A stretch of DNA of 36,493 bases from a virus (taxonomy: Duplodnaviria > Heunggongvirae > Uroviricota > Caudoviricetes), in the IMG/VR virus record IMGVR_UViG_2563366937_000005, positions 1-36,493 of that record; one strand, written 5' to 3'. The translations under genes and the position numbers were made by a program. Each line of letters begins with the position of its first letter. Within the stretch, counting starts at the first letter, position 1. Under the pieces are notes generated by a model. The model had not been told where the DNA came from and ran no database searches. It worked only from the letters and a program-made list of their open reading frames with translations. This document shows positions 6,843 to 14,327 of this stretch, one piece after another.

Positions 6843-7535
6843 TTAATTATGTCTCTTAAGGGTTTGCGACTGACTGATTAAGACCTTTCCAAAGACCATG
6901 AATCGGTGTTCGTTTTCGCTAGTAATTCCCCATTCACGGTAAATCTGGTTATCAGAAATCACCAGCAGTTTGTCAGGAATCATTTGAAGTCTTTTAACGT
7001 ATATTTTGTCATCAAAACCAAAGACATATATACCATCACCATCAAACTGATTGATGCTGACATCAACGAAGATGAGATCTCCTGGCTCAATGGTTGGACA
7101 CATACTGTCCCCACGAACGTTGATAACTTTGATGTGATTGGCTGGTCGTCCGCCGAACATTGATACAGCATTATCAGTTCTGTATTCGATGGCATGAATC
7201 ACATCAATGACATCACCGCCCTGGATAAGGCCATTTCCCGCACTGGCACTGATATCCAGCATTTCAATACGGAACACATCCTTCACCTGCGCAACATCCT
7301 CATTATTACTGTTTTTATATACAGTATTGCTTTTGAGGGCAGAGGTAAAGAGATCAGCAATATCAACACCTAAGCTCTTGGCAATATTACTCAGTGTTTG
7401 TTCGGTAAATTGTTTCTGCTTACCCGTTTCTAAGCGCGAGATGTTCGCCGCATCTACTCCTATTGCTTCAGCGAGATCGGCGATTTTCATGTTCTTCGCT
7501 TGGCGAAGTTGTCTGACTCGGTTTCCTATGTTCAT
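6843..7535 (-). CDS. cI: CI-like prophage repressor (N-terminal XRE-type HTH plus C-terminal S24 LexA-like autopeptidase domain)
   Basis: 230 aa; N-terminal HTH (RVRQLRQAKNMKIADLAEAIGVDAANISRLETGK); C-terminal S24 motifs GDSM (VRGDSMCPTIEPGDLIFVD) and a downstream KR; divergent from the cro-like gene across an operator region. Confidence 0.85.
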   Translation of the reverse strand: MNIGNRVRQLRQAKNMKIADLAEAIGVDAANISRLETGKQKQFTEQTLSNIAKSLGVDIADLFTSALKSNTVYKNSNNEDVAQVKDVFRIEMLDISASAGNGLIQGGDVIDVIHAIEYRTDNAVSMFGGRPANHIKVINVRGDSMCPTIEPGDLIFVDVSINQFDGDGIYVFGFDDKIYVKRLQMIPDKLLVISDNQIYREWGITSENEHRFMVFGKVLISQSQTLKRHN

Positions 7536-7632: not shown

Positions 7633-7893
7633 ATGCAATCACCATTACGAAATGTGCGTAAGGCGCATGGTTTCACTTTGCAGCATGTTGCTGCGGGTGT
7701 TCAAGTCAATCCAGCGACGTTGAGTCGTATTGAGAGGCTGGAGCAGATTCCATCTATCGAGCTTGCAGAACGTTTAGCCAATTTTTTTAAGGGTGAAATC
7801 AGCGAAATGCAGATTCTTTATCCGGCACGTTTTCAATCTAGCCAAAACCAGAATGGGTTTAAACCACAGGAACAGGAGGTGAACCGTGGGTAA
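7633..7893 (+). CDS. cro: Cro-like HTH regulator (XRE family)
   Basis: 86 aa, first gene of the rightward operon; HTH segment FTLQHVAAGVQVNPATLSRIER. Confidence 0.7.
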   Translation: MQSPLRNVRKAHGFTLQHVAAGVQVNPATLSRIERLEQIPSIELAERLANFFKGEISEMQILYPARFQSSQNQNGFKPQEQEVNRG

Positions 7894-8443
7894 GCATCAC
7901 TGGAAAGTAGAAAAACAGCCTGAGTGGTACGTGAAAGCAGTCAGAAAAACTATCGCAGCGTTGCCGGGGGGTTACGCTGAAGCAGCTGACTGGCTGGATG
8001 TAACAGAGAACGCATTATTTAACCGCCTTCGTGCCGATGGCGATCAAATTTTCCCGCTGGGATGGGCAATGATTTTACAACGTGCTGGTGGCACTCACTT
8101 CATTGCTGACGCTGTGGCGCAGTCTGCAAATGGCGTCTTTGTGTCTCTTCCTGACGTCGAGGATGTGGATAACGCCGATATTAACCAGCGCCTGCTGGAA
8201 GTCATTGAACAGATTGGCAGTTATTCCAAACAGATTCGTTCGGCAATCGAAGACGGTGTGGTGGAACCGCATGAGAAGACAGCAATTAACGACGAGCTGT
8301 ATCTCTCAATTTCGAAGCTGCAGGAGCATGCAGCACTTGTCTACAAAATTTTTTGCATTTCAGAAAGTAATGACGCCCGCGAGTGTGCAGCTCCGGGCGT
8401 CGTGGCGTCGATTGCTTCTGGTTGTGGAGAAACTAACGCATGA
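7886..8443 (+). CDS. CII-like regulatory protein (CP76/CII family by position and character)
   Basis: 185-aa ORF overlapping the cro stop; in the cII position; family assignment from memory only. Confidence 0.5.
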
Positions 8444-8778
8444 ACAGTTTAACAACACACTACCGTCGCTCGCAACTGATTGCACTTCCTGTACCAGGTG
8501 GAAAAGCGAAGGTGGAGTATTGCTATGCAGTAAATGTACCAGGTGACAGGGAAATTGTAACCCACAGCTTTGCAGAGTGGGCTGTGGGTGATTTCAACCG
8601 GCAGAAGGAGGCAGTCCTTTGCGACAAGTTAACCGCTGGTTCAAAGATCACTACGGAGTGCCCGTCAGAGTCATTCGTTGGGAGCCGGAAACACAACGGG
8701 TTATCTACCTCCGCGGAGGTTATGAGCATGAATGCTTCAGTCCGCTCGAACAGTTTCGTCGTAAATTCAGGGAAATAG
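8440..8778 (+). CDS. Hypothetical protein; possibly a frameshifted gene (see the alternative-frame ORF 8619-8798)
   Basis: ATGA overlap with the upstream stop; N-terminal half looks protein-like, C-terminal half is Ser-rich and the +2 frame carries a more protein-like reading. Confidence 0.35.
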
Positions 8779-8798
8779 AGGCCGGTCATGAGCACTAA
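8619..8798 (+). CDS. Candidate small protein (59 aa, TTG start) missing from the ORF track, or the true 3' part of a frameshifted gene
   Basis: AAGGAGG at 8605-8611, 7-nt spacer, TTG at 8619; translation [59 protein letters not shown] ends with a TAA that overlaps the start of the next gene. Confidence 0.35.
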
Positions 8799-9729
8799 AT
8801 TAACCGGCTATGTATGGGATGGTTGCGCTGCATCAGGCATGAAGTTATCCAGCGTGGCAATTATGGCCCGCCTGGCTGATTTCAGTAATGACGAAGGTGT
8901 GTGCTGGCCATCAATTGAAACCATTGCCCGTCAGATTGGCGCGGGGATGAGTACCGTCAGAACGGCTATCGCACGGCTGGAAGCAGAAGGCTGGTTAACG
9001 CGTAAGGCGCGTCGCCAGGGTAACCGCAATGCGTCGAATGTTTATCAGCTTAACGTTGCGAAGCTTCAGGCAGCGGCATTTTCTCAACTGTCAGATTCTG
9101 ACCCGTCAAAATCTGACGCATCAAAATCTGACCCGTCAAAATTTGATGCGTCGAAATCTGGCAAAAAAGCGGGTTTTCACCCGTCAGAATCTGGCGGGGA
9201 TCCGTCAGTAAAATCAAAACATGATCCGTCAGATAAAAAACCTTCTCGTCCGGACGCTTCGCAACCGGACACGCAGACGGCTGAACAGGATTTTTTAACT
9301 CGCCATCCTGATGCGGTTGTATTCAGCCCTAAAAAGCGCCAGTGGGGGACGCAGGATGATTTGACCTGTGCACAGTGGCTCTGGAAAAAAATCATTGCCC
9401 TGTACGAGCAGGCCGCCGAATGTGACGGCGAGGTGGTTCGTCCCAAAGAACCGAACTGGACAGCCTGGGCAAACGAAATTCGCCTGATGTGTGTGCAGGA
9501 TGGTCGTACTCACAAACAAATCTGCGAGATGTACAGCCGCGTCAGCCGCGATCCGTTCTGGTGCCGTAACGTGCTCAGCCCGTCAAAGTTGCGGGAAAAA
9601 TGGGATGAGCTTTCCCTGCGCTTATCGCCGTCCGTCAGCACGTACACCGAAAAACGCGAAGACCCGTACTTCAAAGCCAGTTACGACAACGTGGACTATA
9701 GCCAGATCCCGGCAGGATTCAGGGGATGA
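8788..9729 (+). CDS. Replication initiator (O-like; N-terminal winged-helix DNA-binding domain, C-terminal DnaT-like region) with internal iterons
   Basis: 313 aa; N-terminal HTH (WPSIETIARQIGAGMSTVRTAIARLEAEGWL); central pentapeptide repeats SKSDA/SKSDP encoded by tandem 15-bp DNA repeats; position after cII as for lambda O. Confidence 0.65.
   Translation: MSTKLTGYVWDGCAASGMKLSSVAIMARLADFSNDEGVCWPSIETIARQIGAGMSTVRTAIARLEAEGWLTRKARRQGNRNASNVYQLNVAKLQAAAFSQLSDSDPSKSDASKSDPSKFDASKSGKKAGFHPSESGGDPSVKSKHDPSDKKPSRPDASQPDTQTAEQDFLTRHPDAVVFSPKKRQWGTQDDLTCAQWLWKKIIALYEQAAECDGEVVRPKEPNWTAWANEIRLMCVQDGRTHKQICEMYSRVSRDPFWCRNVLSPSKLREKWDELSLRLSPSVSTYTEKREDPYFKASYDNVDYSQIPAGFRG
9091..9240. repeat. Iteron-like tandem repeats (five contiguous 15-bp units TCARAATCTGACSCR plus degenerate copies) inside the replication initiator gene; candidate origin of replication
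   Basis: Units at 9091-9105, 9106-9120, 9121-9135, 9136-9150, 9151-9165; further CCGTCAG copies at about 9181-9232, followed by an A-rich stretch. Confidence 0.5.
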
Positions 9730-10220
9730 TCATGAGTCTGTTAAATGACGTTCAGAAATTCATTGAAGCCCATCCGGGGTGTACTTCTGGAGACATTGCG
9801 GATGCTTTTGCAGGTTACTCACGGCAGCGCGTTCTGCAGTCTGCAAGCAAGTTACGTCAGAGTGGGCGTGTGGCTCACCGTTGTGAAGGAGATACACGCA
9901 GACATCTCCCGCGCCTGACTGAGAGAGCGCAGGAACCGGAACCACAACCGGTTCGAGAAACCAGACCTGTGCGCAATTTCTATGTCGGCACTAACGATCC
10001 ACGGGTGATTTTGTGCCTGACCCGCCAGGCTGAAGAACTGGAGTCCAGGGGCTTATACCGTCGTGCTGCAACCGTGTGGATGGCGGCATTCCGTGAAAGC
10101 CACTCCCAGCCAGAACGAAACAATTTTCTGGCGCGTCGTGAGCTGTGTTTACGGAAAAGCAGCAAGCGCGCTGTATCGAGTGATGAGTGGTATCTGTCAG
10201 GGAATTACGTGGGGGCGTAA
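9726..10220 (+). CDS. Hypothetical protein (164 aa) in the replication/nin region
   Basis: ATGA overlap with the initiator stop; its stop overlaps the next start (TAATG); no confident family assignment. Confidence 0.45.
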   Translation: MIMSLLNDVQKFIEAHPGCTSGDIADAFAGYSRQRVLQSASKLRQSGRVAHRCEGDTRRHLPRLTERAQEPEPQPVRETRPVRNFYVGTNDPRVILCLTRQAEELESRGLYRRAATVWMAAFRESHSQPERNNFLARRELCLRKSSKRAVSSDEWYLSGNYVGA

Positions 10221-10546
10221 TGACGACGTTAACTCAATGCCAGCAGCAGGTGCTGGATATGCTGATTTCTTATCAGAAAGAGCGTGGCTTTCCGCCAACC
10301 AATCAGGAGGTGGCAACCATGCTGGGATACCGTTCAGTGAATGCAGCGGTAGAGCATCTTCGCGCACTGGAGAAAAAAGGCGTCATCACGATAAAGCGTG
10401 GCGTGGCCCGGGGGATAACGCTTCATACCGCGGTGAAGGACGACGACAGCGAGGCGGTCGGGATTATCCGCGCACTGCTTGCCGGTGAGGAAAACGCAAG
10501 GCTGCGTGCAACCCACTGGTTACATGAGAGGGGCCTGAAAGTATGA
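10220..10546 (+). CDS. LexA N-terminal DNA-binding-domain homologue lacking the S24 peptidase domain
   Basis: Start at the internal ATG (MTTLTQCQQQVLDMLISYQKERGFPPTNQEVATMLGYRSVNAAVEHLRALEKKGVITIKRGVARGITL), 108 aa; aligns residue-by-residue with the E. coli LexA N-terminus ([65 protein letters not shown], from memory); no GDSM/KR protease motifs. Confidence 0.6.
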   Translation: MTTLTQCQQQVLDMLISYQKERGFPPTNQEVATMLGYRSVNAAVEHLRALEKKGVITIKRGVARGITLHTAVKDDDSEAVGIIRALLAGEENARLRATHWLHERGLKV

Positions 10547-10932
10547 AGCTGATCCTGCCTTTTCCGCCCAGCGTGAACACGTACTGGCGACACCCCAACA
10601 AAGGGGCGTTTGCTGGTAAGAGCCTGATAAACGCGGTGGGGCGAAAATTCCAGAGCGCAGCGTGCGCAGCAATAGTTGAGCAGTTACGTCGTCTGCCGAA
10701 ACCAACGTCGGCACCTGCTTCAGTGGAGATCGTGTTGTTTCCTCCGGATAACCGGATCCGCGATCTGGACAACTATAACAAGGCGCTGTTTGACGCCCTG
10801 ACCCACGCGGGTGTGTGGGAAGACGACAGTCAGGTGAAAAGAATGCTGGTGGAGTGGGGACCGGTTATCCCGGAAGGGAAGGTCGAGATCACTATCAGTA
10901 AGTACGAGAAAACGGCGGGTGCAGCCGCCTGA
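10543..10932 (+). CDS. rusA: RusA-family Holliday junction resolvase
   Basis: 129 aa; conserved RusA pattern DLDNYNKALFDALTHAGVWEDDSQV (compare E. coli RusA [25 protein letters not shown]); ATGA-coupled to the upstream gene. Confidence 0.8.
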   Translation: MKLILPFPPSVNTYWRHPNKGAFAGKSLINAVGRKFQSAACAAIVEQLRRLPKPTSAPASVEIVLFPPDNRIRDLDNYNKALFDALTHAGVWEDDSQVKRMLVEWGPVIPEGKVEITISKYEKTAGAAA

Positions 10933-10951
10933 TCAAGAGGAGAAACGAAGT

Positions 10952-11749
10952 ATGAATAATCTGATGGTCATTGATGGTATTGAAGTTCGTCGTGATGCTT
11001 ATGGTCGTTACAGCCTGAACGATCTGCACAGGGCTGCCGGTTCTCTGGATAAGCATAAGCCTGCATTCTGGCTCCGCAATGAGCAAACTGAACGTTTAAT
11101 AAGCGAGTTGCAGATTTGCAACTCGGTCAATATAGAGCCAGTTAACGTTATTCGTGGCGGAAATAACCAGGGGACGTATGTCTGCAAAGAACTGGTGTAT
11201 GCCTATGCAATGTGGATCAGCCCGTCATTCCATCTGAAGGTGATCCGTACTTTCGACATGGTAACCAGCACACCGGAAAAATTATCCGGACAGGCTGCTG
11301 ACAAGATGCAGGCTGGCGTGATTCTGCTGGACTTTATGCGCAGGGAGTTAAACCTGTCTAACTCTTCAGTGCTTGGTGCCTGTCAGAAACTCCAGGAGGC
11401 TGTTGGCTTACCGAATCTGGCACCGCGCTATGCCATTGATGCTCCAGCTGATGCACACGATGGCTCAAGTCGCCCGACACTGTCACTGAGTGCACTGCTG
11501 AAACAGTATGGTATCCGCCTGACGGCTAATCAGGCATATCACCAGATGGTGAAGCTGGGGATCGTCGAGCAGCGCGAACGATACAGCCGTACCGCGATTA
11601 ACAACATCAAAAAATTCTGGTCGCTGACAGCGAAAGGCTGCATGTTCGGCAAGAACATCACCAGTCCCGCAAATCCGCGCGAGACGCAGCCGCATTTCTT
11701 CGAATCCCGATTCCCTGAGCTGTTAAAGCTGCTCGATACCGTTCATTGA
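10952..11749 (+). CDS. KilA-N domain protein with C-terminal extension
   Basis: Start at the internal ATG (MNNLMVIDGIEVRRDAYGRYSLNDLHRAAG...), preceded by AGAGGAG; N-terminal KilA-N-like pattern (...RYSLNDLH...KPAFWLRNEQT...). Confidence 0.65.
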   Translation: MNNLMVIDGIEVRRDAYGRYSLNDLHRAAGSLDKHKPAFWLRNEQTERLISELQICNSVNIEPVNVIRGGNNQGTYVCKELVYAYAMWISPSFHLKVIRTFDMVTSTPEKLSGQAADKMQAGVILLDFMRRELNLSNSSVLGACQKLQEAVGLPNLAPRYAIDAPADAHDGSSRPTLSLSALLKQYGIRLTANQAYHQMVKLGIVEQRERYSRTAINNIKKFWSLTAKGCMFGKNITSPANPRETQPHFFESRFPELLKLLDTVH

Positions 11750-11750
11750 G

Positions 11751-12746
11751 GTGACCGTGAGAGCACTACTGACCCCTGAAATTGCCCCGCGTATGGGGAT
11801 CGTATTGTTCAGGCCAGGTTCAGAGCTGATGCCCCTGTTTATGCAGGGGCGTGTCCTGCTGGAGCCTGAGCCGGAGCGTTATTCATCTTTCGCCAGTGGT
11901 GCCGTTCCGGCGGCATCACAACCGCTGGCGGATGATCCTGCCGTTCGGGCCGTGTTCCGCGATGAGGCAGTGATCCGTCGTGCTGGTGGCGTGGAATGTC
12001 TTGAAAGCTGGTTACTTCGTGAAAAAGGCTGCCAGTGGCCTCATTCCGACTGGCACAGCGAGAACATGACCACAATGCGACACGCTCCGGGTGCAATCCG
12101 TCTGTGCTGGCACTGCGATAACCAGCTGCGCGATCAGTTCACGGAACGGCTGGAATCAATGGCAACGGATAACTGTGCCCGCTGGGTGTTGTCTGTTGTG
12201 CGTCGGGATCTCGGTTTTGATGATAGTCACGTTGTGACAATGCCGGAACTATGCTGGTGGCTGGTTCGTAATGACCTGGCGGATGCCTTACCGGAAAGTG
12301 CAGCCCGTAAGGCACTGAGATTACCGAAGCCTGTTGTGCCGTCTGTCACCCGGGAAAGTGACCTTGTTCCTTCGGTTCCTGCCACCAGCATCATCCAGGA
12401 TAAGGCGAAAAAGGTGCTGGCGCTGAAAGTGGAGCCGGAGTCGCCGGAGTCTTTTATGTTACGCCCCAAACGTCGCCGCTGGGTTAATGAAAAGTACACG
12501 CGCTGGGTTAAGACACAGCCGTGTGCATGTTGTGGAAAGCCTGCTGATGATCCCCACCACCTGATAGGTCACGGTCAGGGTGGAATGGGAACAAAAGCGC
12601 ATGACCTTTTTGTGTTGCCTTTGTGCAGAAAGCATCACGACGAGCTGCATGCGGATACCGTGGCATTTGAAGAGAAGTATGGCTCCCAGCTGGAGCTGAT
12701 ATTTCGTTTTATCGATCGTGCGCTGGCAATTGGCGTGCTGGCCTGA
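11751..12746 (+). CDS. DUF968-like nin-region protein with C-terminal Cys/His (HNH-like zinc-binding) motif
   Basis: 331 aa, GTG start; C-terminus contains CACCGKPADDPHHLIGHGQGGMGTKAHDLFVLPLCRKHHDELH; family assignment from memory. Confidence 0.5.
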   Translation: MTVRALLTPEIAPRMGIVLFRPGSELMPLFMQGRVLLEPEPERYSSFASGAVPAASQPLADDPAVRAVFRDEAVIRRAGGVECLESWLLREKGCQWPHSDWHSENMTTMRHAPGAIRLCWHCDNQLRDQFTERLESMATDNCARWVLSVVRRDLGFDDSHVVTMPELCWWLVRNDLADALPESAARKALRLPKPVVPSVTRESDLVPSVPATSIIQDKAKKVLALKVEPESPESFMLRPKRRRWVNEKYTRWVKTQPCACCGKPADDPHHLIGHGQGGMGTKAHDLFVLPLCRKHHDELHADTVAFEEKYGSQLELIFRFIDRALAIGVLA

Positions 12747-13108: not shown

Positions 13109-14327
13109 TATTTGGCATTAATTTAAATAAAATACCGATGATGCCTATGAATGTAGGCATCCATGCTAGTGATAATAAACTGTCAAGCACCTTATGACAA
13201 AAATCCTCATTGTCATTTAATTTTTTAATAGCCTCTTCTAAGCTCTCTTTAAGATCGCTGGTGTCATCCTTTATTCTATATCTTAATTGTCCAAAAAGTA
13301 TTTCTTTAGAGTGTGAAATACGAGCGAGTTGTTTTTTTTGTGACACAATCATTGCAGATGTTATTATTGCTGTGATAATCAATCCAATTAAAGCAATAAT
13401 CCAATCAGTTTTTGTTGTTAATTTGAAAATAGCAATTGAACCAGCTAGTGAAATAGGTATTGCAAGAGCTTTGTTAGAAATTTCTGAAATTATTTTTGAC
13501 AGTTTTTCTGAGTAATCGAGTTCAGCATCAACAACTTCTTTCCTTGCTTTATGAAAAGAAAATGCCGACATATAAGCAGCTAAGTTGTTCGTATAAAGTT
13601 CGCATATGAAATCCCACTTGTTAATTAACTCGACAAAGGAATTTCCATTTTTATTAACATACTCAATAACTGTGTTTCTGAAAGTGTTAATCTTTTCAAT
13701 GTGATGGGCATCAGTAGTAGCTTCACTACTTACTAATGTTTTAACTAACTGAGTATTTACTGTTTTATCATTAAAAATTTCTTCTGTAATATTTGTTTCA
13801 ATTACAGCAGAAGAAGATTTAGACTCTGAGTTTAAAATAAAGACTAAACGATAAAATGTACCTTTGCTATCTTTTTTTATATCATGGAAATGAGCAAGCA
13901 TGGAAAGAGCATTGATTAGCTCACAAATGTCCTCAATTTTTTGGATATAAGAAGGTTTTGGTGTTTCTAATGAATAGAAATCATCCTCTATAATATAGAA
14001 ATACTCTGGCATTATGCCTTTCTTGAGCGTGTTTATTTTTACAAACTCGTTTTTATTTTTATAAAAACGATTCGCACTTCCTTGTGAAATTTTAAACGAG
14101 TATGTAAGAAAATTTCCCTTTTCAGGAAAGTCTTCATAATCATAAATTAAATGACCATCCACCTCTATTTCGTCAGCTGTACCAGCTTGAAAAGTAGGGT
14201 TCAAAATTCTTTTGAACAATGATTTTACGTCTGCATTATAAGCTATACGCGCAGAAAACTTAGCCCCGTCAAAATGAGGATAGCTTGATAATCTATACAG
14301 ATTAACTATTATACTAAAATCATTCAT
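13101..14327 (-). CDS. Hypothetical 408-aa protein with two C-terminal transmembrane helices (second gene of the AT-rich cassette; candidate membrane effector)
   Basis: ATG at 14327 overlaps the upstream gene stop (ATGA); about 285-aa soluble N-terminal region with no motif I recognise; hydrophobic helices LAIPISLAGSIAIFKL...WIIALIGLIITAIITSAMIV and LLSLAWMPTFIGIIGILFKLM; 3' end overlaps the convergent Q stop by 8 nt; strongly AT-rich. Confidence 0.6.
   Translation of the reverse strand: MNDFSIIVNLYRLSSYPHFDGAKFSARIAYNADVKSLFKRILNPTFQAGTADEIEVDGHLIYDYEDFPEKGNFLTYSFKISQGSANRFYKNKNEFVKINTLKKGIMPEYFYIIEDDFYSLETPKPSYIQKIEDICELINALSMLAHFHDIKKDSKGTFYRLVFILNSESKSSSAVIETNITEEIFNDKTVNTQLVKTLVSSEATTDAHHIEKINTFRNTVIEYVNKNGNSFVELINKWDFICELYTNNLAAYMSAFSFHKARKEVVDAELDYSEKLSKIISEISNKALAIPISLAGSIAIFKLTTKTDWIIALIGLIITAIITSAMIVSQKKQLARISHSKEILFGQLRYRIKDDTSDLKESLEEAIKKLNDNEDFCHKVLDSLLSLAWMPTFIGIIGILFKLMPNIT

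Follow-up and report, generated by a model that had tools for sequence, protein, structure and literature searches.

The replication origins of lambda and the Stx phages consist of iterons and an AT-rich tract in the middle of gene O, and Stx phages with six iterons have a correspondingly longer O protein (PMC7466680). Distinct iterons lie inside each of the initiator genes of phages lambda, P22 and L, those of phage L being six imprecise short repeats of 11 bp (PMC8022706). Plasmid iteron origins in general have been reviewed elsewhere (PMC4980987). In this study, we analysed a stretch of 36,493 nucleotides from a Caudoviricetes virus (IMG/VR record IMGVR_UViG_2563366937_000005, hereafter the window), in which tandem repeats are found within the replication initiator gene at 8788..9729. 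An original prediction had taken these repeats for the probable replication origin and the binding sites of the initiator. Constraint on the repeats as DNA, their co-variation with the N-terminal domain of the initiator and an adjoining A-rich tract support this claim. We therefore consider that 9090-9246 is probably (roughly 80%, in our estimate) the vegetative replication origin, with initiator-binding sites, of a lambdoid prophage of the SfIV/SfII/Kati type, placed inside its own initiator gene.

The lambda-like arrangement that had been proposed, with iterons inside gene O, is supported, and the layout is colinear with lambda O and ori-lambda. As in lambda and its six-iteron Stx variants, the putative origin lies in the middle of the gene and separates the coding regions of the N-terminal (DNA-binding) and C-terminal domains; the direct repeats, which have internal dyad symmetry, precede an A-rich tract, and the number of iterons changes the length of the protein. 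The four iterons of lambda O occupy approximately nt 347-435 and its lowest-GC 40-mer is at nt 436, to be compared with nt 303-408 and nt 418 here. The C-terminal region is homologous to that of lambda O (39% identity). The N-terminal domain, however, is of the Phage_rep_O type in lambda and HTH_36/MarR-like here, and the lambda sites, of about 19 bp at a spacing of about 24 bp, contrast with 13-bp palindromes spaced at 15 bp. Unlike lambda, the present locus has two conserved GATC sites in the A-rich tract, no P gene after the initiator gene, and a DnaT-like tail on the initiator.

The C-terminal domain is also homologous to that of phi80 gene 15 (35% amino-acid identity) and to the "primosomal protein I" of phage mEp460_4F5 (96% nucleotide identity). 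In both genes, as here, an A-rich tract follows a repeat array at the corresponding position, but the N-terminal domains differ and so do the repeats, which measure 21 bp (CCGAAAACGGGAAAAACCTTC) in phi80 and 23-24 bp (GGTCAAAATGACACGATnCCATCG) in mEp460_4F5. In phi80, gene 14, the analogue of P, lies downstream, unlike here. Gene 18 of P22 and gene 18 of phage L likewise contain initiator-specific iterons inside the coding region, although their sequences are unrelated to ours, and these phages encode their own DnaB-type helicase, gp12 (PMC8022706), whereas none is encoded nearby in the window.

More distant systems share some of these elements. Like the iteron plasmids pPS10, RK2 and P1 (oriR), the locus combines a winged-helix initiator, tandem iterons and an adjoining AT-rich tract, which in the plasmids is an unwinding element. 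The iterons of plasmids lie between genes, usually measure 17-22 bp and follow one another at about two helical turns, whereas those described here are coding, palindromic and 15 bp apart. In contrast with E. coli oriC and plasmid origins, no cluster of DnaA boxes is found near the array: matches to the box were not enriched in the window (79 versus 66.6 expected) and none adjoins the repeats. One of the two exact matches of the window to the DnaA-box consensus (TTATCCACA) lies at 8164-8172 on the minus strand, some 900 bp upstream of the iterons and within the cII/CP76-like gene. In Bacillus phage SPP1, oriL also lies inside the initiator gene, gene 38. The initiator of the window shares with SPP1 G38P/G39P matches to the PHROG families "DnaD-like helicase loader" and "replisome organizer", but it matches them weakly in structure and is unrelated to the SPP1 proteins at the sequence level, and SPP1 encodes its own loader and helicase, unlike the present locus.

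A probable iteron array within the initiator gene

The five contiguous 15-bp repeats and the further copies that had been described were confirmed by direct reading, Tandem Repeats Finder and a repeat search. Tandem Repeats Finder, which had been named as a check, reported an array at 9097-9160 with a period of 15 (4.3 copies, 81% matches); a period of 30 also scored on this segment (88% matches). The repeat search returned five in-register copies from 9091 with 15-bp spacing and a sixth copy 33 bp further on (9169-9198). After the sixth iteron, weaker copies containing CCGTCAG are present at 9201 and 9225. The consensus GTCAGAWTCTGAC, with at most two mismatches, occurs four times in the window, always inside 9090-9195; shuffled versions of the window gave a mean of 0.63 occurrences, and four or more were reached in none of 100 shuffles. 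A 13-bp palindrome phased at 15 bp describes the functional unit better than a 15-bp repeat does. Judged from the codons conserved across the family, the segment constrained as DNA extends past the array to approximately 9246.

The array is in frame in the open reading frame (ORF) 8788..9729, with the translation ...SDSD PSKSD ASKSD PSKFD ASKSG..., so that the repeats are indeed read as the SKSD(A/P)-type pentapeptides expected from the original prediction. Within the 942-nt gene, the array segment as a whole covers nt 303-459. A CRISPR array, in which repeats of about 24-48 bp alternate with unique spacers of similar length in non-coding DNA, was ruled out, since the units are contiguous, 15 bp long, separated by 2-bp spacers and in frame within a conserved ORF.

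Related octamers are present outside the array. CCGTCARA was found on the plus strand at 8662, 8928, 8954 and 9580; of the 11 matches in the window, eight lie within 8662-9587, all on the plus strand, and 2.7 were expected for the whole window. The copies at 8928 and 8954 are in other reading frames than the array. These outer copies were not counted as sites; in relatives the codons of the copy at 8928 are unconserved (R48 is CGC in 35 and CGT in 28, and A47 is mixed). They may be chance occurrences or weak auxiliary sites.

Constraint on the repeats as DNA

Two samples were compared: 80 loci from bacterial assemblies, with one genome per species (N-terminal identity of 60-100%, many genera of Enterobacterales), and 80 near-identical viral contigs. 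To avoid circularity, repeat units in the first sample were defined by the peptide pattern xSxSx in the linker alone, which gave 293 units in 79 distinct genes. The first serine of the unit is encoded by TCA in 88% of the units, and the second by TCT in 77% and by TCA in a single one. The middle codon is always AAA, GAA, GAT or AAT, position 9 never being G or C, and the aspartate at the fifth position is mostly GAC. Outside the array, serines of the same genes use AGC (26%), TCA (26%) and TCT (11%). In the N-terminal domain, which served as a control, the mean top-codon fraction over 53 conserved columns was 0.52, and the serines conserved there mix AGC, AGT and TCN codons, indicating that synonymous sites are saturated at this divergence.

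The codon choice also depends on the position in the gene. The aspartate of Asp-Pro is encoded by GAC in 107 of 107 cases in the array and by GAT in 149 of 150 cases in the A-rich tract, while the rest of the gene uses both (GAT 27, GAC 39). This can be explained by a requirement for TCTGAC in the array and by the creation of GATC in the A-rich tract. Conversely, the peptide varies (K/E/D/N, S/P/A) where the DNA core is constant: PSKSD, PSDSD, RPDSD, PPESG, ASKSV and PAKSG are all encoded with CA[GA]A[AT]TCTG. Copies of this 9-bp core number 303 in the 80 genes, all of them at nt 270-560, with 1-8 per gene.

The same holds downstream of the tandem array. Across the family, codons in 9172-9240 are fixed as TTT (74/74), GAA (68/68), GAT (77/77), GTA (76/76) and TCA (72/72), and replacements in this segment (S/P/A, S/L/Q) retain two of the three nucleotides. 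In the sixth-iteron unit, TCT is found in 73 of 75 genes and exchanges between S, P and A use xCA codons that retain the CA dinucleotide. The spacer codons at 9163..9171 vary across the family, in both nucleotides and amino acids. In a Proteus subgroup (L076), the sixth-iteron unit is triplicated with a 27-bp period, and in a Proteus/Providencia subgroup both the 24-bp A-rich unit and the 27-bp sixth-iteron unit are reiterated.

No close relative with conserved flanks was found to lack the repeats, the finding that had been put forward as contrary to an origin: the array is present in 80 of 80 near-identical relatives and in the 80 diverged loci examined. The near-identical relatives carry 5-7 copies, four of them having one or two extra 15-bp units, and most substitutions within their arrays affect the 2-bp spacer and alter the amino acid there (P to T or Q). 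These comparisons show the repeats to be under selection as DNA, independently of the peptide that they encode.

Two members of the samples have aberrant genes. In one near-identical viral contig (L097), the A6 run of the spacer has gained an A and a G/T run is altered, at about 9161-9176; the resulting frameshift in the initiator reflects either a homopolymer sequencing error or a decayed prophage. In E. coli ECDA1023 (L059), only the first 79 codons are present, fused to unrelated sequence.

The initiator protein and its domains

The gene 8788..9729 matches phrog_391, "replication initiation O-like" (8e-136), and is 99% identical to genes of Kati, SfIV and SfII, labelled there "replication protein O" or "primosomal protein". 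Residues 166-277 are 39% identical to O of the lambda/434 type, and a BLASTP comparison with lambda O aligned aa 70-277 on aa 78-270 (30.6% identity, E = 7e-26). On this sequence evidence the gene is a replication initiator. Its assignment to the O type holds only in part. The PHROG match and the C-terminal half, like that of lambda and 434 O, agree with it, but the N-terminal domain gave no Pfam match to Phage_rep_O and no P-like gene follows. Instead, Pfam HTH_36 was detected at aa 23-70, with further winged-helix matches of the GntR, MarR and DnaD_N types. The C-terminal domain is weakly DnaD/G39P-like.

An AlphaFold2 (AF2) model was built on 40 homologues. Residues 1-98 are predicted to form a folded winged helix (helices 3-16, 20-31, 43-50 and 54-66, beta wing 70-88, helix 90-98) and aa 189-278 a confident helical C-terminal domain. 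Between them, aa 102-161 have pLDDT values below 50. The nucleotides that encode these residues, 9091-9270, comprise the repeat array and the A-rich tract; the repeats are thus predicted to encode a disordered linker. The best Foldseek matches of the N-terminal domain in the PDB were dimeric winged-helix proteins of the MarR/ArsR type, several of them solved on DNA, and a PDB sequence search with the initiator returned weak MarR-type matches only. Dimeric winged-helix proteins commonly bind palindromic sites. The residues of the recognition helix and wing are invariant in the first five relatives compared (61-88% identical).

Association of the repeats with the N-terminal domain

Comparison with O-like genes of related phages, also suggested as a check, showed that initiators with other N-terminal domains (mEp460_4F5, phi80, lambda) carry other repeats in the same place. 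In mEp460_4F5, 5.4 copies of its repeat are followed by the A-rich unit ACAGAGAATACA three times; in phi80 gene 15, 3.5 copies precede the A-rich tract. The gene of mEp460_4F5 (L165, 2023-3003) shares nt 443-942 of the gene described here (window 9230-9729) and differs upstream. Its sequence identifies it as a natural hybrid, with the apparent recombination junction right after the A-rich tract, at about 9241 of the window. The reverse situation is found in Citrobacter phage phiNP, which shares nt 2-479 of the gene (to 9266 of the window) and diverges after this point.

As read from the sequences, the N-terminal domain and the repeats are joined to at least three unrelated C-terminal regions. 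The first is the lambda-O-like region of the window and of Klebsiella phage 1 LV-2017, the second ("ITDQAKQVL...") is found in phiNP and Yersinia phage YeP3, and the third in phage EKP1. A single-linkage clustering of the C-terminal domains merged these types and was not used. The repeats are thus co-inherited with the N-terminal winged-helix domain and independent of the C-terminal domain. An iteron and origin model predicts just this, namely repeats that co-vary with the DNA-binding domain while the layout is conserved.

The A-rich tract and its GATC sites

Within 8500-10000, the lowest-GC 40-mer lies in the A-rich tract (GC 0.30-0.325, AT skew +0.41), where the skew towards A is also the strongest of this region. 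Stability within the gene is lowest in the 40-mer at 9207-9246 (-47.0 kcal/mol; window mean -55.9, sd 4.7). This instability is supportive rather than decisive.

The two GATC sites of the tract, at 9199-9202 and 9223-9226, are 24 bp apart. Two such sites are present in 65 of the 80 genes, the usual spacing of neighbours being 24 bp. AT-rich repeats bearing GATC are also a feature of the oriC 13-mers and of P1 oriR. By this parallel, the maintenance of the GATC pair through GAT-only aspartate codons suggests control by Dam methylation or SeqA, and the tract may serve as an unwinding element. A Dam-type methylase is encoded just downstream in several relatives; none is encoded there in the window or in SfIV.

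Proposed mechanism and alternative explanations

In the mechanism that we propose, N-terminal winged-helix dimers would bind the palindromes and form a nucleoprotein complex similar to the O-some. Transcription that starts at the early right promoter and crosses the gene would help this complex to open the adjoining A-rich tract, and through the GATC pair Dam methylation and SeqA could influence opening or re-initiation. Recruitment of the host DnaB helicase, directly or via host DnaC or restart proteins, would then fall to the lambda-O-like C-terminal domain together with the DnaT-like tail. The host route is proposed because no P-, DnaC- or DnaB-like protein is encoded next to the initiator. 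An origin within a protein-coding sequence would be tolerated since this stretch encodes a disordered linker of Ser, Asp, Lys and Pro, whose length and sequence are free to vary.

Several points weigh against this interpretation. A centre-to-centre spacing of 15 bp is tight for winged-helix dimers, the periods in phi80 and mEp460_4F5 being 21-24 bp. All repeat copies are in a single reading frame, and independence of frame cannot be used as evidence. The instability of the A-rich tract is only about 1.9 sd from the window mean and is equalled by nearby intergenic stretches, and its GC content of 0.30 is less extreme than the 0.20 of lambda. The region 9726-12746, next to the initiator gene, contains no P-, DnaC- or DnaB-like gene, which leaves the downstream steps of helicase loading unsupported. 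Finally, the SfIV genome paper contains no description of this origin or of binding to it, and a text search of a literature library for two longer iteron strings found no paper containing them.

The palindromes could instead bind the initiator or another phage regulator for autoregulation, roadblock or copy control, with the origin elsewhere in the prophage. Sites in iteron plasmids also serve autoregulation and handcuffing. We nevertheless regard this explanation as unlikely. The 36.5-kb window contains no second cluster of the motif, and the sites, the A-rich tract and the C-terminal domain are colinear with those of lambda and of phi80, whose origin was reportedly mapped by Grosschedl and Hobom in 1979. 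Moreover, the adjoining A-rich GATC tract is itself constrained as DNA, which operator function alone does not need.

It is quite improbable that the constraint acts on nucleic-acid secondary structure, for example through a hairpin in the mRNA that regulates initiator translation, or through a cruciform or single-stranded DNA hairpin. The 161 nt at 9085-9245 do fold at -28.4 kcal/mol, compared with -13.7 kcal/mol for shuffles (z = -5.75), and an 18-nt inverted repeat (9115-9132 / 9135-9152) is 89% complementary, but tandem palindromic sites are automatically self-complementary. A hairpin-type Rfam match, to mir-5880, was far below threshold (30.7 bits versus a gathering score of 97); as the only match, and one caused by the palindromes, it does not place the segment in a known RNA family. 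Bases rather than pairs are conserved: positions 6 and 12 are A/T in 211 units, and where position 6 is G, position 12 is C in 11 units and T in 17, with no clear compensatory pattern among the units. With 1-8 copies across the family, long-range pairings are not preserved, and the sixth site, which stands alone, is conserved although it has no partner array. Least probable of all is that the repeats are a low-complexity SKSD peptide linker made by slippage, the DNA repeat being a functionless by-product: the predicted disorder of the linker, the differences of whole 15-bp units between close relatives and the single frame would fit, but this peptide-only explanation is rejected by position-specific synonymous fixation that a peptide does not predict (TCA versus TCT, AAA never AAG, GAC versus GAT by location), by randomised synonymous sites in the flanking domain, by residues that switch charge (K, E, D, N) and class (S, P, A) over constant nucleotides, and by amino-acid-changing spacer substitutions between close relatives.

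Genomic context and the DnaT-like tail

The features of the locus are collected in Table 1. The window is a lambdoid prophage that shows, over long stretches, about 96% identity to the Shigella phages SfII, SfIV and SfV as well as to several phages of Escherichia.

Table 1. Coordinates of the putative origin, the initiator gene and neighbouring features in the window.
Feature	Position	Strand	Remarks
Five tandem 13-bp palindromic iterons	9090..9162	.	15-bp phasing; consensus GTCAGAWTCTGAC; cores at 9090, 9105, 9120, 9135, 9150
Iteron core	9090		GTCAGATTCTGAC
Iteron core	9105		GTCAAAATCTGAC
Iteron core	9120		ATCAAAATCTGAC
Iteron core	9135		GTCAAAATTTGAT
Iteron core	9150		GTCGAAATCTGGC
A-rich variable spacer, short	9163..9171	.	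GCAAAAAAG; encodes GKK
Sixth iteron, isolated	9172..9198	.	GGTTTTCACCCGTCAGAATCTGGCGGG; highly conserved, flanks conserved
Sixth iteron core	9183 (9183-9195)		GTCAGAATCTGGC
A-rich tract, two 24-bp repeats each starting with GATC	9199..9246	.	GATCCGTCAGTAAAATCAAAACAT / GATCCGTCAGATAAAAAACCTTCT; candidate DNA-unwinding element
Whole segment as read	9090-9246		CTGTCAGATTCTGAC CCGTCAAAATCTGAC GCATCAAAATCTGAC CCGTCAAAATTTGAT GCGTCGAAATCTGGC ... CCGTCAGAATCTGGC GGG GATCCGTCAGTAAAATCAAAACAT GATCCGTCAGATAAAAAACCTTCT
Replication initiator gene	8788..9729	+	313 aa; N-terminal winged helix, disordered linker, lambda-O-like C-terminal domain
N-terminal winged-helix DNA-binding domain, aa 1-98	8788..9081	+	Presumed iteron reader
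Junction between DNA-binding-domain and origin module and C-terminal module	9241..9266	.	From comparisons with phiNP and mEp460_4F5
C-terminal helical domain, aa 162-278	9271..9621	+	Related to C-terminal regions of lambda O and phi80 gp15; presumed helicase/loader recruitment
C-terminal tail	9691..9726	+	...VDYSQIPAGFRG; resembles the C-terminus of host DnaT
CI-type repressor	6843..7535	-	Upstream of the initiator gene
Cro-like HTH	7633..7893		Upstream of the initiator gene
CII/CP76-like protein	7886..8443		Upstream of the initiator gene
Winged helix and PerC-type activator	9726..10220		Start overlaps the initiator stop (ATGA)
LexA-DNA-binding-like gene	After 9726..10220		
RusA-, KilA-N- and DUF968/HNH-like ORFs	Further downstream, to 12746		Read from sequence and related-phage annotations, no Pfam scan

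The lack of an adjoining loader gene agrees with the PHROG matches of the initiator to helicase-loader and replisome-organizer families. In two relatives (L001 and L002), methylase genes directly follow the initiator gene.

The last nine residues of the initiator, SQIPAGFRG, are identical at eight of nine positions to residues 171-179 of E. coli K-12 DnaT (SQIPPGFRG). An hhalign comparison of the two proteins aligned the last 16 columns only, and homology to DnaT, or primosomal protein I, as the gene is labelled in SfIV, SfII and Kati, was rejected at the domain level. The tail explains this annotation and looks like a shared short docking motif; it may dock on a host replication protein. A recent preprint on the structure of the DnaT primosome states no contact partner for the DnaT tail. 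The terminus GFR[GSTA] is present in 32 of the 80 family genes, whose terminal sequences suggest differing C-terminal regions.

A more specific and rather doubtful extension is a lambdoid replicon without a loader of its own. Here, the IPxGFRG tail would dock on the protein that partners DnaT in the PriA/PriB/DnaT-DnaC restart pathway of the host and so load DnaB, with opening gated by the two Dam-methylatable GATC sites. If true, this phage origin would fire via the replication-restart machinery by mimicking a host primosome protein.

Distribution and significance

The module is present in 2,058 of 5,426 complete E. coli genomes, and also in Shigella serotype-converting phages and many genera of Enterobacterales. 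In the ten records listed, the annotation is only "helix-turn-helix domain-containing protein", with no origin feature. We found no account of this origin in papers on the replication regions of Stx phages ("Eru"). The arrangement follows the classical lambdoid pattern; it is this set of iterons for which we found no description in the literature. The locus is set apart by the tight packing of its palindromic sites at 15 bp, by two conserved GATC sites, by the lack of a loader gene and by the tail that resembles DnaT.

With the putative origin and its recognition sequence in hand, prophage replication modules could be typed, and incompatibility or cross-activation of co-resident prophages would be predicted. 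An origin at this place would also explain the polymorphic length of the initiator linker. The locus offers a clean natural example of overlapping codes at the DNA and protein levels, and its position-specific codon signature (GAC versus GAT, TCA versus TCT) offers a generally applicable way of searching genes computationally for hidden origins. With no adjoining loader gene and a DnaT-like tail on the initiator, the helicase may be recruited by a new route, which can be tested.

Copies of the module with 85-88% N-terminal identity, close to enterobacterial ones, were found in assemblies assigned to Vagococcus, Chryseobacterium and Martelella, and a relative with 61% identity in "Elizabethkingia phage EKP1". 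These records are probably contaminated or mislabelled rather than evidence of true hosts. Elsewhere in the window, a 20-bp direct repeat (CGTGTTTATTTTTACAAACT, 1.9 copies, 88% matches) lies in an AT-rich stretch at 14028-14065, downstream of the nin-like region, and may be a regulatory site near the late-gene activator.

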